Shown here in pieces: positions 3,516 to 8,764 of a stretch of DNA of 9,440 nucleotides. The notes under the pieces are model-generated. The model was not told the DNA's origin and did no database searches. It saw only the letters and a list, made by a program, of their open reading frames with translations. How positions within the stretch are numbered: the stretch's first letter is position 1; every line of letters begins with the position of its first letter. The stretch lies in the IMG/VR virus record IMGVR_UViG_3300023038_000043, positions 1 through 9,440 of that record, one strand, 5' to 3'. The DNA is from a virus. Taxonomy: Duplodnaviria; Heunggongvirae; Uroviricota; Caudoviricetes. A program made the translations under genes and the position numbers.

Positions 3516-4734
3516 CTCCACTCTCCTTTTTCTTACCGTTGTCATCGCCAGCAGAGGGACTGGTGGTCATGTTCATCGGTGTCAGATACACATCACCGCC
3601 TGGTCGGGGATTCATATCCTCCAGATCACGGCAGTCATTAGGGGAATAAATCCCCCAGTTGATCCCCGTGGCATACGCTTCAAAGCGGGATTTCATGTCG
3701 CCACGCAACAATGCTCCGGCATTAAATTTGGCGTAAAACCTCCCCTGTTTGCTCTCCCTGACCAGCCCTGTATTGATCCGTTGTTCAATACGGGTCAGAT
3801 ACGGCACAAGGGAATAGTTGATAAATCCGAGCCCCAGCTCTTCAATATTGTTGAAGGTGGCGCGATCGGTGTTCTGCACCATGTGCAATGGCACACGGAA
3901 CAGACGACAGATTTCTTCCAGCTGAAACTTGCGGGTTTCCAGGAACTGGCTGTCCTCGGCGTTCAGCGCCATCGACTTCCAGTCCAGCCCCATTTCCAGA
4001 ATCATCGGGCGGTGAGCATTGCCAAGCCCCGTGTGACGCTCCTCAAAATCTTTCTTCAGACGCTCGTAAGCATCCGGCGTGAGCTTTTGTTCCGTACGCA
4101 ACACACCGGATGTCACCGCACCATTACCAAACAACCTGGCACCGTGCTCCTCGGTTGCCGCTGCCAGTGAAATGGCCTCACGCGCATACGCAATGGGATT
4201 CAGCCCCACCAGTCCGTCCAGCGTCAGAGTGCGCACATGCCAGATTTTATCCTGGGTCAGCACATCCACGGAACCATCCGGAAACGTCACCTGATAAACC
4301 GGCTGCCACTGGCTGTTCAGCTTCGGTTCCACACAGCCCGGATCTATCGGAAGAAGCTCCACCACTTCCCCCAGTGCCTTTACCTTGTAGGCGTAAAAAT
4401 TCCCCCGCAGACACAGGCAGACAATGACCAGTTCCCAGAATTCCTGCGGCGTCATGTAGCCATTGGGTTTTGCCGAAATCAGCTTATGCAGCCGTTCATC
4501 CACCGCCCGTGTTTTAAGGGTGCCGCTGATTTTGTAGAGACTGCAGGGCAGCATACCAACAGACTCAGCCAGCACCCTGACGCAGGAATAGACCGCCGTC
4601 AGCCGCATGGCCCGCTGGCTGCTGATCCGCTTTCCGGTATAGGTGTCGTATGACAGCCCGATAGCCTCCGCCAGCTCTGCTGGCGTGGTCACCGGTGCGT
4701 CACTTTTTCGTTGAAATAACCCCGAAAAGAACAC
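3493..4734 (-). CDS. Portal protein, HK97 family (apparent GTG start)
   Basis: 413-aa ORF with GGAGG 6 nt upstream of the first (GTG) codon at 4734..4732. Size, position between terminase and protease, and acidic C-terminal tail are typical of portals. Overlaps the protease gene 5' end by at least 23 nt. Confidence 0.88.
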   Translation of the reverse strand: MFFSGLFQRKSDAPVTTPAELAEAIGLSYDTYTGKRISSQRAMRLTAVYSCVRVLAESVGMLPCSLYKISGTLKTRAVDERLHKLISAKPNGYMTPQEFWELVIVCLCLRGNFYAYKVKALGEVVELLPIDPGCVEPKLNSQWQPVYQVTFPDGSVDVLTQDKIWHVRTLTLDGLVGLNPIAYAREAISLAAATEEHGARLFGNGAVTSGVLRTEQKLTPDAYERLKKDFEERHTGLGNAHRPMILEMGLDWKSMALNAEDSQFLETRKFQLEEICRLFRVPLHMVQNTDRATFNNIEELGLGFINYSLVPYLTRIEQRINTGLVRESKQGRFYAKFNAGALLRGDMKSRFEAYATGINWGIYSPNDCRDLEDMNPRPGGDVYLTPMNMTTSPSAGDDNGKKKESGDADKTAS

Positions 4735-4916
4735 TATTTACCTCCGCCGACAGACTGCCGTGTACGGTCGAGATATCGTGCAACCAGCCACGACCAGAAC
4801 AGGCACAGCGCCCCGGCAACAACAAAACCCGCCGGGGGATAAATCAGCCAGGCGCCATACGCCAGCAAAAGCACACCCAGCACGCCCACCAGAGGCGTGA
4901 GAATTATCAGAAACAT
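4734..4916 (-). CDS. Small predicted two-TM membrane protein (60 aa) between terminase large subunit and portal
   Basis: ATG at 4916..4914 with GAGG 6 nt upstream; [49 protein letters not shown]... is strongly hydrophobic with host-like CTG-rich codons. Its stop TAG (4736..4734) overlaps the portal start codon. No family recognised. Confidence 0.5.
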
Positions 4917-4927
4917 AATGTCCTCGG

Positions 4928-6685
4928 TTAAAGCGAGCGGATACCAACACTAATCAGGTGTTCAGACAGATCCGGCTCCGGTTCACCGCCATTGACCAGC
5001 ATCCGGCTCATTGCTGTAAACATCGCAACAGGGCCGTCGATTTTTGCTTCAGGCGTGGATTTGTTCGGGAAGATATTGTCGTTTTTGTCCGGTTTTACCG
5101 TAACGTTAGACATCATCCAGTTCATGACCGGGTGATTGCTGTGGTGAAAACGCCCGGCATAGACCAGTGATTCCGTTTCCTTCATGGCCTCTGACAGATT
5201 GCGGACCGTCTGCGGAACTTCCACCAGCGGTATCCCTTCTTCAGCCAGAGCCAGACTGAACTGCATTGCACTCCACGGGTCAAATCCCAGCTCCCTCAGG
5301 TTTTCACCACCAATCCATTCCAGTAAGTCACTTTTTATCTGAGCATGATCGATAACATCACCATCCGTCAGGATGAGCTTATCCATCTCCGCCCATTTCC
5401 GGTAAAGTTCTGCCTGCTGCCGCGAGCACCGCTCCAGCCGTCCTTCCGGGAGCCAGAATTTAAAATCAGCATGAACATGTCCGTTATCGGTTCGCCAGAG
5501 TTTTGCCGCCGCACAGATATCAATCTTATGAGCAAGGTCGACGCCGACCCACATGGGATACGTTTTCAGCTCATGTCGTGGGGCAATATATTCGCATTTC
5601 TCCCACTTAATCATGTCCATCCAGGCAGACTCTGCTGTTACCCACACATTCATGTGTTTCGTGAAAAAATTCACCCGCGCTGAAACCTGTTCCTTCGCTT
5701 TTTTCGCCAGACGACGCAGATCATCCCAGCGTTTACAGATGCCCAGGCCCGGATTCGCTTTCTGCCAGACCGTTTCATCAAACGGATCATCTCCCTCATC
5801 GAGCGTGTAAATAATCGCAAAGTAGGAGTCGTCTTTTACCGCGCCCTCCACGTCACTGTTATAGCCTCGCAATACCTTGATGGCGTAATCGCGTTGCTCG
5901 TAACAAATCCCTTCCTTGTTAAAGCCCGCCGTGGTGATACCAAATAACAGGGACTGCAGACGGGCACCGGTTGCCGTTTCCAGAACGTCCCACACGTCGC
6001 GGGTTTTATGTGCATGCAGCTCATCAATAATGGCGCAGTGGATGTTCAGACCGTCCAGGTTGTTTGCATCCGAGGAAAGCGGTTCAAATTTTGATGCACT
6101 CTGCTCCTGGTAAATCGCCAGCTTGTTGAAATCAAACAACCGCCCGAGTGTCGACCGGGCTTTTCTGACCATATTTTTGGCGTCTTCAAACACGATTCTG
6201 GCCTGGTCACGCGTGGTTGCGGCTGAATACACCTCAGCCCCGCCTTCACCATCTGCCCCCGTCATATACAGACCGATACCCGATGACAGGGTTGATTTTG
6301 CGTTTTTACGGGCGACTTCGTTGTACGCCGTCCGGAACCGGCGCACCATCACCGGGCGCCCGCTGCCATCGCTGCGCATGACAACTTCCCCGGTCTCTTC
6401 ATTCACCAGCGGAATGACAAAACCAAAAATATTAATGAGGATAAAAACATGCCAGTCCATCAACTCAATGGGCTGACCTGCCAGCGCCCCTTTCACATGG
6501 GGCACAAATTTGTAGAAATTCAGGATGTGCTGCGCACGGGGTTCACTGAAATAAATCCCCCGCTCTTCGCCGTACTTCAGATCATCAAGAAAACGCTGGC
6601 AGGCCAGACGGACAAATTCGCCAGCGACAATTTCTCCTGCAACAACACGTTCGGCGTAGCGGATCCCGTCAGCCACTTTTGCCAT
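4928..6685 (-). CDS. Terminase large subunit (Terminase_1-like ATPase/nuclease)
   Basis: 585 aa; ATG at 6685..6683 shares a nucleotide with the small-subunit TGA (TGATG coupling). Contains a Walker-B-like hydrophobic-DE motif ([14 protein letters not shown]) and overall terminase-like layout. Lies between the small subunit and portal. Confidence 0.93.
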
Positions 6686-7167
6686 CAGTCTCTCGCTTTT
6701 AAAAGCTCTGCCAGTGGATCAACATCATCCGGTCCGGCGGTATTTACTTTCGCCCGGCTTGCCGGTGACATACCAAACTCTGCAAGCATCGCCCGGATCC
6801 GCTTCCAGGCATCCGCCTTCATCGCCGCAGCCGGATGTGCCTTGATCATCACATCGCCATTCTGCGTTTCCGTGCGGTAGGTATAACCCTCAACATCGAG
6901 TGTTTCGCAGTGATGCCGGTATTCGATGTAGGCTTCCACCAGTAACTCGAGTGCACGCGCATCAAGCTGAGAAATGATCCCTTCCGCATTCAGCTCTTCC
7001 GCCATTCGCCTGAACCAGTACTTCCCCTGCGCCCCTAAATGTTGCGGAATTTTAGGGAGACCTTTTTCATCCTTTTTAGCGGCTTTTTTGGGGTCTTTAA
7101 CGGGGCGCTTTGAGGGGTTGCCTCGTATCAAATGCAGGCGTGGCGGGGTTTTCGGGGGTCCTGACAT
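6685..7167 (-). CDS. Terminase small subunit (P27-family-like)
   Basis: 160 aa; ATG at 7167..7165. Basic Lys/Pro-rich N-terminus (PPKTPPRLHLIRGNPSKRPVKDPKKAAKKDEKGLP) followed by a helical region, typical of P27-type small subunits. Immediately upstream of and coupled to the large subunit. Confidence 0.85.
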   Translation of the reverse strand: MSGPPKTPPRLHLIRGNPSKRPVKDPKKAAKKDEKGLPKIPQHLGAQGKYWFRRMAEELNAEGIISQLDARALELLVEAYIEYRHHCETLDVEGYTYRTETQNGDVMIKAHPAAAMKADAWKRIRAMLAEFGMSPASRAKVNTAGPDDVDPLAELLKARD

Positions 7168-7180
7168 AATCGGTTTTACC

Positions 7181-7193
7181 TATCAATCGTTTG
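7181..7193. promoter_or_regulatory. IHF core-consensus match (TATCAATCGTTTG fits WATCAANNNNTTR), candidate cosB-like bending site
   Basis: Exact match to the IHF core consensus read directly in the sequence, 14-26 nt upstream of the terS start and next to an A7 tract (7205-7211). Functional assignment is inference by analogy to lambda cosB. Confidence 0.3.
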
Positions 7194-7244
7194 ATCGCAT
7201 TCCCAAAAAAAGTTTTCGAACCTGCGGCGATGCGAGAAAGGGTT

Positions 7245-7296
7245 GGCGGGCGGTCCCGGACAGCCAGGGCTGCAGGGATTTGACCCGCCCCTCCCC
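7245..7296. other. Candidate cos (cosN-like) site: GC-rich nested inverted repeats between HNH endonuclease and terS
   Basis: GGCGGGCGGTCCCGG (7245-7259) and GACCCGCCCCTCCCC (7282-7296) are imperfect inverted repeats flanking a central palindrome cagcc-ag-ggctg (7261-7272). Location between an HNH endonuclease and terS is where HK97-type phages carry cos. The exact nick positions cannot be derived from sequence alone. Confidence 0.35.
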
Positions 7297-7313
7297 ACAA
7301 GTGAGAATAATTA

Positions 7314-7664
7314 TCACCTGATTCGTTCGCGCGCTGTTTTCGCTTTGTGGCAGGGCCAGCACAGACTCTGCAGGTTGCTGTCTGCGTCTGTTCCGCCATG
7401 TGCTTTCGGGATGATGTGGTCGACAGTTTTCGCCTCGCGCACCACACCGACACGCAGACACAACTGACACAGACCTTTATCGCGCTTCAGAATACGGGCA
7501 CGAATCACCGTCCATTTTGAGCCATAACCACGCTGGTGGCGGCTCAGTCCGCGCTGGTGCTGTGCCCAGCCTTCACCACGATGTTTATCGCAGTAGCCAG
7601 AACTGTCTGTCGTTGTGCCTGCGCAGCCTCGCTTACGGCATGCGCGGGGGATCCGTGATGGCAT
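7314..7664 (-). CDS. HNH endonuclease (packaging-associated, HK97 gp74-like)
   Basis: 116 aa; Cys-x2-Cys...His...Asn...His...Cys-x2-Cys layout (CQLCLRVGVVREAKTVDHIIPKAHGGTDADSNLQSLCWPCHKAKT) plus an N-terminal Cys cluster. Located directly upstream of cos/terS. Confidence 0.9.
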   Translation of the reverse strand: MPSRIPRACRKRGCAGTTTDSSGYCDKHRGEGWAQHQRGLSRHQRGYGSKWTVIRARILKRDKGLCQLCLRVGVVREAKTVDHIIPKAHGGTDADSNLQSLCWPCHKAKTARERIR

Positions 7665-7723: not shown

Positions 7724-7936
7724 ATGAAAAATACTATTTCAAAAGGATTTCACCGGACAGGCGTTCTGTTGGCTATTTTGGTGTTGATGTTGAGCTTTGG
7801 TTTCTTTTTATTAACAGGTGCTGGTACAGGAATCTCGTTATTTGCTGTATTAGTTTCCCTGGTATGTGCCTTACTGACATACGGCATACTCAGACTGGTC
7901 GGATGGGCCGTTAACGGATTCATAAAAGATAACTAA
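7724..7936 (+). CDS. Small two-TM membrane protein (70 aa), opposite-strand AT-rich moron-like gene
   Basis: ATG at 7724 with GGAG 5 nt upstream; MKNTISKGFHRTGVLLAILVLMLSFGFFLLTGAGTGISLFAVLVSLVCALLTYGILRLVGWAVNGF... has two hydrophobic helices. About 40% GC by hand count versus visibly GC-richer flanks, and AT-rich codons (tta, att, ttt). Followed by a hairpin. Confidence 0.6.
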   Translation: MKNTISKGFHRTGVLLAILVLMLSFGFFLLTGAGTGISLFAVLVSLVCALLTYGILRLVGWAVNGFIKDN

Positions 7937-7984: not shown

Positions 7985-8167
7985 TCAGTTCTGCGTACAC
8001 AGTCGAACGCCATCAATAAGCTGGCAGACCTGAAACGCGGTATCGAAAAGCTGGCGCGCCTTATCCAGACTGACGCATCCCACCAGGAAAAAAGGCACCA
8101 GTATCGCTACCAGTGCCCATTTCGCCGCCGTTCGCGGCATTCTGTGTGTCCAGTGTTTTCGGTTCAT
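7985..8167 (-). CDS. Small lipoprotein-like / membrane protein (60 aa) with candidate lipobox LVGC
   Basis: ATG at 8167..8165 lies 1 nt after the upstream 37-aa ORF stop (TGAcATG), preceded by a GGTGGTG SD-like sequence. Basic n-region, hydrophobic h-region (WALVAILVPFFLVG), then Cys, leaving a roughly 29-aa mature peptide with 3 Cys. An internal ATG at 8140 would give a canonical 22-aa signal peptide. Confidence 0.5.
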   Translation of the reverse strand: MNRKHWTHRMPRTAAKWALVAILVPFFLVGCVSLDKARQLFDTAFQVCQLIDGVRLCTQN

Positions 8168-8168
8168 G

Positions 8169-8282
8169 TCACCACCAACGCACAGCCAAAATCAGAACAG
8201 CAATCACCACAAGGCGAATTGCAAAGGCCGCAGCCCTTGTCAAATCAAGGCTCGCGGGAGTTTCCACTTCAATACCTTTCAT
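8169..8282 (-). CDS. 37-aa tail-anchored hydrophobic peptide (below the ORF-track length cutoff)
   Basis: Hand translation: ATG at 8282..8280, GAGG 9 nt upstream, product MKGIEVETPASLDLTRAAAFAIRLVVIAVLILAVRWW, stop TGA at 8171..8169, tightly coupled to the 60-aa gene. A TATAAA -10-like hexamer (rc of 8307-8312) lies upstream. Confidence 0.4.
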   Translation of the reverse strand: MKGIEVETPASLDLTRAAAFAIRLVVIAVLILAVRWW

Positions 8283-8373
8283 AATGGACAACCTCAAAAA
8301 GAATCTTTTATACTTTCCCACGAGGATTTTCTCCGTACTCACTACTCACAATTTCCTCTTTGACGTGAAAACT

Positions 8374-8416
8374 AAAAACCCCGGACTGTTCCAGCAGCCG
8401 GGGTTTTGTTTTTTAT
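8374..8416. terminator. Strong bidirectional rho-independent terminator
   Basis: AAAAA (8374-8378), stem CCCCGG(A)CTG (8379-8388), 6-nt loop, CAGCCGGGG (8395-8403), then TTTTGTTTTTTATTT (8404-8416). Stem is 9 bp with one bulge. U-tracts are available on both strands. Sits immediately after the 93-aa gene stop. Confidence 0.75.
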
Positions 8417-8694
8417 TTACTGCCTTGGGTGCGGCATCTGGCTATTTCATTCCTGGCTTTACTGTCACCGCGACAGATACAACGCACCGTGTCTCCGGTC
8501 AGCGTGGTAATGTAGGCTTCATCCGTTTTTTCCACCGAAATGCATGGTACATTTCCATCCCGGCAATACTCCACTTGGGCAGCAAGGTGAGTGTTGCGCG
8601 GGTAAAATTCCAGGCGATACATATTCCCCAGAACATGCACTTCTTCAACCTGACGCCCATCTTCCGTTACCGTGATTTTTTTCAGTGCGTACAT
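8413..8694 (-). CDS. Hypothetical Cys-containing protein (93 aa), no recognised family
   Basis: ATG at 8694..8692 with perfect GGAGG 5 nt upstream (rc of 8700-8704); MYALKKITVTEDGRQVEEVHVLGNMYRLEFYPRNTHLAAQVEYCRDGNVPCISVEKTD...CICRGD...; no TM segment or signal peptide. Bracketed by terminator-like hairpins on both sides. Confidence 0.55.
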   Translation of the reverse strand: MYALKKITVTEDGRQVEEVHVLGNMYRLEFYPRNTHLAAQVEYCRDGNVPCISVEKTDEAYITTLTGDTVRCICRGDSKARNEIARCRTQGSK

Positions 8695-8723
8695 ACATAC
8701 CTCCGTTCTTTCGTTTTTTGAGC

Positions 8724-8747
8724 AATAAAAAAGCCGCTCATGGCGGC
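8724..8747 (-). terminator. Candidate rho-independent terminator downstream of the endolysin gene (5-bp GC stem plus U-run on the minus-strand transcript)
   Basis: gccgc (8733-8737) / gcggc (8743-8747) stem with tcatg loop; on the minus-strand RNA the hairpin is followed by UUUUUUAUU (rc of 8724-8732). Short stem, so strength is uncertain. Confidence 0.35.
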
Positions 8748-8764
8748 CCTGTATGTTTTGCAAG

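Follow-up and report, generated by a model that had tools for sequence, protein, structure and literature searches.

The described packaging systems closest to the present locus are those of HK97 (and HK022), in which cos is cut by the gp1/gp2 terminase with gp74 and the genes lie in the order HNH, cos, terS, terL. HK97 DNA ends in 10-nt 3′ overhangs, and cleavage at cos is stimulated by the phage's HNH protein, gp74 (PMC9410871). The small terminase of HK97 occupies +15 to +29, a stretch which includes an essential A-tract (PMC11331095). A second set of phages, phiP27, SfV, SfI, SfII and SfIV, encodes small terminases of the P27 family. Run-off sequencing of the termini of SfI virion DNA revealed a 10-nt gap, TGCCCGCCCC (PMC3636060), and the phiP27 record carries the annotation of a 10-nt 'cos-site', CGCCCGCCCC. 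Lambda cos (cosQ-cosN-cosB, with IHF site I1) provides a further point of comparison, its three-part logic being that of an upstream element, a nick site and a downstream small-terminase site. The ends of lambda are 12-nt 5′ overhangs, as against the 10-nt 3′ overhangs of HK97.

The DNA analysed here, referred to as the window, is a stretch of 9,440 bp taken at its full length. The gap between its HNH and terS genes appears to hold, at 7205-7296 on the minus strand, the cos site of an HK97-like lambdoid prophage, of the HK97/phiP27 type; the probability of this reading is put at about 0.8. By every sequence-level test the site is one of the HK97/phiP27/SfV cos sites. The late operon of the window, on the minus strand, runs through holin, M15 endolysin, small ORFs, HNH, terS, terL, portal, S78 protease and major capsid protein. 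The portal, S78 protease and HK97-fold capsid genes share the minus strand with HNH, a P27-family terS and an HK97-like terL. The three genes around and beyond the gap are:

7314..7664, minus strand: HNH endonuclease gene, 116 aa (Pfam HNH, E 1.9e-16; PHROG 144)
6685..7167, minus strand: small terminase gene (terS), 160 aa, P27 family (Pfam Terminase_4)
4928..6685, minus strand: large terminase gene (terL), 585 aa, HK97-like (Pfam TerL_ATPase and TerL_nuclease)

The window TerL matches the HK97 TerL structure 6z6d (E 1e-35), its sole PDB match. The HNH protein is 34% identical to HK97 gp74 over 70 aa and is of the kind which accompanies HK97-type terminases. An HNH homologue lies upstream of terS in 35/35 species-level relatives. 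A sequence-only reading of this DNA had proposed an HNH-cos-terminase arrangement of HK97 type, and the Pfam and PDB matches, together with the same gene order in all 35 relatives, bear this out; the length of 146 bp which it gave for the gap is likewise correct, the HNH stop lying at 7314 and the terS start at 7167. It had also suggested that the packaging apparatus is intact, with which the intact HNH, terS, terL, portal, protease and capsid reading frames are consistent.

The packaging module is widely distributed. The assembly collection indexes the identical TerL protein in 529 blocks; the four places listed for it lie on NCBI genome contigs of 1.0-5.3 Mb, and these loci continue into full tail gene sets. 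One prophage with the identical TerL (locus L130, 5384-6610) has genes for the Shiga-toxin A and B subunits (Pfam RIP, SLT_beta) upstream of its lysis cassette, and the packaging module therefore also serves Stx phages. Several smaller reading frames accompany these genes. A 60-aa ORF between terL and portal (4734-4916, minus strand) matches PHROG 502 (membrane protein, moron category), and its position is conserved in all four listed loci with identical TerL. On the opposite strand just beyond HNH, a 70-aa ORF (7724-7936, plus strand) has a GGAG ribosome-binding site and looks by eye hydrophobic and membrane-like; it has no match in Pfam or PHROG and may be a moron gene or spurious. The plus-strand ORF at 8113-8721 likewise has no match in Pfam or PHROG, and the minus-strand ORFs at 7985-8167 and 8413-8763 match PHROGs 7528 and 33497.

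The gap was compared with that of 80 close relatives in IMG/VR (terS 96-99% identical) and of 35 distant, species-level relatives in GTDB genomes (terS 57-74% identical); the latter come from Citrobacter, Proteus, Providencia, Morganella, Xenorhabdus, Serratia, Pantoea and other genera. Across relatives (37 sequences) the 146 nt upstream of terS give an almost gap-free alignment. Read in packaging orientation, which is the minus strand of the window, the layout is a G-rich box, a 21-nt spacer, GAC/CGCCCGCCAA/ and a 31-nt block ending in T7, with slashes marking the predicted cuts. The features are:

7302-7316, minus strand: dyad box TGATAATTATTCTCA, which shares bases with the HNH stop codon and precedes the G-rich box by about 5 nt
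7277-7296, minus strand: G-rich box GGGGAGGGGCGGGTCAAATC, conserved, upstream of the cut and on the genome end packaged last
7256-7276, no strand assigned: 21-nt spacer of fixed length and variable sequence, holding the palindrome cagcc-ag-ggctg (7261-7272)
7243-7252, minus strand: predicted 10-nt cohesive end 5′-CGCCCGCCAA-3′, placed by the register of the relatives' ends and preceded by an invariant GAC (7253-7255)
7205-7235, minus strand: conserved 31-nt block TCGCATCGCCGCAGGTTCGAAAACTTTTTTT, +8 to +38 relative to the cut, with an A7/T7 tract at its far end; candidate small-terminase recognition site
7181-7193, plus strand: exact IHF consensus TATCAATCGTTTG, +50 to +62 relative to the cut, matching WATCAANNNNTTR

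The predicted cut is placed by the genome ends of relatives. Identity to the Stx2e phage phiP27 is 95-99% across the HNH gene and onward as far as 7245, with 98.6% over the HNH-side half of the site (7245-7313), and the annotated cos-site of phiP27 aligns with 7243-7252, where the minus strand of the window reads CGCCCGCCAA. SfII carries the SfI terminal sequence at this same aligned position, and the annotated or sequenced 10-nt ends of phiP27 and SfI are in the window's register. The HK97 record ends in TGAC followed by CGCCGCCAAA and restarts with GTTTGAATTT; when its ends are joined they align gap-free to the window, from the G-rich box to the cut, with the box ending in TCAAATC, the 21-nt spacer and GAC/CGCC all in line and 10 nt between the record-defined cuts. 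A contig of HK022 length ends at the same base as the HK97 record, 10 nt after GAC. Finally, Proteus phage Pm34, which belongs to the terS lineage of the window (terS 61% identical), has a linear record broken exactly at GGAC/CGCCCCCTTA. These break points, directly after GAC and 10 nt later, therefore bracket the predicted overhang. On this alignment the nick region at 7243-7252 is homologous to experimentally or record-defined genome ends of members of the HK97/phiP27 type. The virion ends of the present element and its cut register are read across by homology, with nicks expected between 7252 and 7253 and between 7243 and 7242; by analogy with HK97 only, the cohesive end would be a 3′ overhang. 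The candidate cos site which the sequence-only reading placed in the gap is thus upheld by a register common to the phiP27 annotation, the SfI termini and the HK97, HK022-length and Pm34 record ends, and the comparison with cos sequences of HK97-like phages which it proposed yields a gap-free joint alignment with matching cut positions.

Only the HK97, HK022-length and Pm34 record ends were counted as informative. As evidence of termini, the record ends of SfII, which starts right after the HNH gene, of mEp235, which starts at the terS ATG, and of Providencia phage PSTRCR_117lys, which starts inside the conserved block, were rejected. That of Fraca (LR597645.1) was also set aside, as about 60 nt of its cos-proximal region is duplicated at both ends (L005 125-186 and L006 801-865) in what looks like an assembly artefact, with unrelated coding-like sequence before the copy at the record start. 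A full-text literature search with the overhang strings returned unrelated papers only, and a search for a Pm34 paper found none.

The sequence of the overhang is less uniform than its position. Its last two bases are AA in the window and CC in phiP27, and HK97 has CGCCGCCAAA against CGCCCGCCAA in the window. The loci L009-L088, whose terminases are nearly identical (96-99% in terS), have two overhang alleles some 85 nt before terS, GGGAC-CGCCCGCCAA and AGTAC-CGCCGCCTGA. The overhang sequence therefore seems loosely constrained, and the exact nick position on the terS side is a matter of register and not of sequence identity. Some of these close-relative loci are recombinant within the spacer.

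Over the 35 distant relatives the 10-nt overhang at 7243-7252 holds 1.72 bits per column, the 31-nt block 1.70, with the window matching the consensus at 29/31 positions, and the G-rich box 1.36 over 7279-7296, with the window matching at 17/18. For comparison, the first 60 coding bases of terS (7108-7167) hold 1.67 bits per column; the conserved boxes are as conserved as the terS coding sequence. The spacer, measured over 7259-7278, holds 0.78 bits per column, and 7297-7313, which immediately precedes the G-rich box, 0.29. Also conserved are the 25 nt directly before the terS ATG, which contain the ribosome-binding region. The G-rich box lies at an equal distance from the cut in HK97, SfII, phiP27 and Pm34.

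The A7 tract which the sequence-only reading noticed downstream of its repeats is present at 7205-7211. It forms part of the most conserved block of the region, and on sequence grounds it would be no accessory of the IHF site and resembles instead the A-tract read by the HK97 small terminase. The T7 tract occupies +32 to +38 in the window, as against an A/T tract starting at +24 in HK97. By analogy with the site bound in HK97, the 31-nt block would be the binding site of the small terminase and the equivalent of cosB, read partly through the shape of the A-tract. The length of the T tract varies among the close relatives (T6, T7 or T8 at the position of window 7205-7211; L009-L088). In distant relatives the T tract runs straight into a GGGGnnCCCC palindrome (L089-L123, some 40 nt before terS). 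This palindrome is absent from the E. coli clade of the window (window 7194-7204), which has the IHF consensus a few bases further downstream. On the protein side, terS residues 1-29 (window 7081-7167) are predicted to be disordered, with pLDDT below 50, yet are nearly invariant and basic (GPPKTP..L.L.RGNPSKRP), and GNPGKR in the terS N-terminus is common to phiP27 and SfII. These 29 residues are candidates for a DNA-binding arm comparable to that at the N-terminus of the HK97 small terminase.

The two sides of the cut have different distributions. A scan of IMG/VR for GGNTCAAATC-N21-GACCGCC returned at least 80 loci, 68 of them with the G-rich box. The sequence after the cut sorts by the class of small terminase encoded downstream: 36 of the 68 are of the window type, 19 of the HK97 gp1 type, five of the SfII type and five of the phiP27 type, with three unclassified. 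Small terminases of the four classes are 20-25% identical or show no detectable similarity. HK97 gp1 has no Pfam match and no BLASTP similarity to the Terminase_4 protein of the window, and the HK97 sequence downstream of the cut is unrelated to that of the window. The phiP27 and SfII small terminases, although of the same Pfam family, are only 20-25% identical to that of the window. phiP27 resembles the window in the HNH gene and in the left half of cos as far as the cut, beyond which the right half is a different sequence. Thus the left half, made up of G-rich box, spacer and GAC/CGCC, precedes four unrelated or distantly related terS lineages. The 31-nt block, by contrast, is found only before the terS lineage of the window; the other lineages have other sequences there, which likewise contain an A/T tract. 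In 65/65 loci of the four terS classes such a tract, 5 nt or longer, is present within +50 of the cut; HK97 too has one downstream of the cut, in the region bound by its small terminase (PMC11331095). The left half most likely serves TerL and HNH, both of which are homologous across all these phages. The window is itself mosaic at the cut, with a joint at 7243-7245: it is phiP27-like (95-99%) from HNH to 7245 and phi467-like from there through terS. Read from the alignments, this mosaic is an example of exchange at the joint between modules.

Part of the site is also carried by small elements. Four contigs of 12.3-13.7 kb have genes for an integrase, a DUF927 primase-like protein, PerC, ProQ/FinO and DUF1441, and no homologues of HNH, terminase, portal or capsid were found in them. 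Each has a 91-nt stretch, 89-96% identical to window 7205-7295, which spans from the G-rich box to the end of the T-tract, and the homology stops exactly at 7205. The cores lie at:

L136 2142-2232
L159 10822-10912
L198 8266-8356
L199 4817-4907

Judging from their gene content and this shared stretch, the four elements are probably PICI-like satellites of phages with a window-type terminase. Retention of the 91-nt core alone is as expected of a satellite which depends on its helper phage for packaging, and it speaks for 7205-7296 being the functional core.

Upstream of the G-rich box, the dyad box is one mismatch from the 7-1-7 Fur-box consensus TGATAATNATTATCA, a single match in the window where 0.01 would be expected. 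A related dyad box, with at most 4 mismatches, is present in 23/36 family loci, as against 5% of shuffles. It occurs in all four terS classes and in satellites which have no HNH; copies stand at L136 2122-2136 and upstream of the G-rich box in L089-L123 and L131-L210. The HK97 version has 4 mismatches to the Fur-box consensus, and a Fur identity for the dyad box is therefore doubtful.

A different organisation had been expected on the sequence-only reading, which described imperfect G-rich inverted repeats (7245-7259 and 7282-7296) nested around a central palindrome, the whole followed by an IHF site as in lambda. The palindrome cagcc-ag-ggctg is there, and so are the G-rich arms, the right one being the G-rich box; their pairing, however, does not stand. 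Ungapped, the 15-nt arms match at 6/15 positions, and exact complementarity is limited to 6 nt (GGCGGG at 7245-7250 with CCCGCC at 7284-7289). Folded as single-stranded DNA, 7236-7300 gives -14 kcal/mol against a shuffle mean of -12.7 (z -0.57), with 57/200 shuffles at least as good. As structure, the nested repeats are therefore not above chance. Their conservation is far above it, each arm being a box with 1.4-1.7 bits per column in the 35 species-level relatives. The central palindrome reads CAACC...GGCTG in most close relatives, without compensating change, and no spacer covariation was seen in fixed register, the spacer sequences of distant relatives being unrelated. The two arms are therefore two separate conserved boxes, and a hairpin or cruciform was rejected on the combined grounds of chance-level folding, 6-nt exact arms and the lack of spacer covariation in fixed register. 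Nor is cosN a nested palindrome: the cut falls in the terS-proximal arm (7243-7252) and not at the palindrome centre, and the predicted overhang is not self-complementary.

The IHF consensus belongs to a lambda-like reading, in which the nested GC-rich palindromes would form a symmetric cosN and IHF bound at 7181-7193 would bend the DNA for assembly of the small terminase. The exact match is confirmed as the sole match to WATCAANNNNTTR in the 9,440-bp window. Chance alone gives 0.36 matches per shuffled window, with at least one in 58/200 shuffles, and about 0.006 would be expected per 146 bp. The consensus is kept in 73/80 close relatives, including changes at the free NNNN and R positions, and its place in this clade, beyond the cut toward terS, is like that of I1 in lambda. 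It is found, however, in 0/35 distant relatives with the same cos architecture and in 0/4 of the satellites carrying the cos core, and is absent from the HK97-, SfII- and phiP27-type right halves. An IHF-organised cosB of lambda type is not borne out; the consensus, limited in this way to one clade, may at most be an accessory specific to the E. coli clade and would not define this cos type. Nothing was found in the literature on IHF dependence of HK97 packaging. Although the upstream element, nick site and downstream small-terminase site share the three-part logic of lambda, the terminase is not of the gpNu1/gpA type, terS being Terminase_4 and terL TerL_ATPase/TerL_nuclease, and the HK97 type, in contrast to lambda, requires an HNH protein. 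An inverted-repeat search found no repeated R-type sites downstream of the cut, only one 6-nt pair (TCGCAT with ATGCGA). The site thus departs from a lambda-type cos in terminase family, in R repeats (by the inverted-repeat search) and in the symmetry of cosN. Together with the unconserved palindrome and the placing of the cut in one arm, this makes a lambda-like cos unlikely.

Two further readings were considered. In one, the site would be a true cos homologue by descent which a defective prophage no longer uses. Cryptic prophages are common in E. coli, no more than 9.4 kb of this element is visible, and the best match among complete E. coli genomes is only 96% identical. All packaging and head reading frames are intact, however, the two boxes are close to the family consensus (29/31 and 17/18), and the identical TerL recurs across the assembly collection, its listed loci continuing into tail genes, all of which makes disuse rather improbable. 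The other reading holds that the region is no packaging signal and owes its conservation to signals for terS expression (promoter, terminator or ribosome-binding site) or to RNA structure. The conserved ribosome-binding region before the ATG agrees with this, as would one weak promoter-like match (TTGACC-17-GAGAAT, 7280-7308), but the latter is on the plus strand, antisense to the operon. No terminator-like site and no Rfam family was found in the region, folding is at chance level, the satellites keep the 91-nt core with no terS downstream, and the records of four phages are broken exactly inside the region. A terminator, promoter or RNA element was rejected as an identity for the site on the first two of these grounds and on the single antisense promoter-like match, and this reading as a whole is highly improbable.

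On the preferred reading, that of a cos site of HK97/phiP27 type, the P27-family small terminase and HK97-like large terminase, helped by HNH, would late in infection cut concatemers at GAC/CGCCCGCCAA/. Cutting would leave 10-nt cohesive ends, with 3′ overhangs if the phage behaves like HK97, and packaging would then proceed toward terS. The conserved nuclease machinery of TerL and HNH would read the left module (G-rich box, 21-bp spacer and GAC/CGCC), in which the G-rich box may act at termination, in the position of lambda cosQ. The small terminase of the lineage would bind the right module, which is the 31-nt block (+8 to +38) with T7 at its end. A broader proposal, to which the odds are somewhat less than even, is that HK97-type cos in general consists of two exchangeable modules joined exactly at the cut. 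The left would be universal, made up of the dyad box, the G-rich box as an undescribed termination element equivalent to cosQ, a ruler-like 21-bp spacer and GAC/CGCC, and read by TerL and HNH; the right would be private to each terS lineage. Recombination at the cut would then swap packaging specificity between phages, and satellites with the 91-bp core could ride on them. No description of the G-rich box, the dyad box or the modular joint was found in papers on HK97 packaging, the older primary literature lying outside the search, and the G-rich box at fixed distance, the upstream dyad box and the modular joint at the cut may be previously undescribed.

For a packaging module very common in E. 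coli prophages, the site fixes where the ends of the virion genome probably lie, which helps prophage annotation, genome linearisation and the prediction of what such phages transduce. The comparison provides a testable map of the bases which matter in HK97-type packaging, the candidates being the G-rich box, the 21-bp spacing, GAC/CGCC and the 31-nt block with its T tract. Small integrative elements with just the cos core are candidate satellites of these phages. Furthermore, the P27 family, though unrelated in appearance, may share the A-tract recognition shown for the small terminase of HK97.
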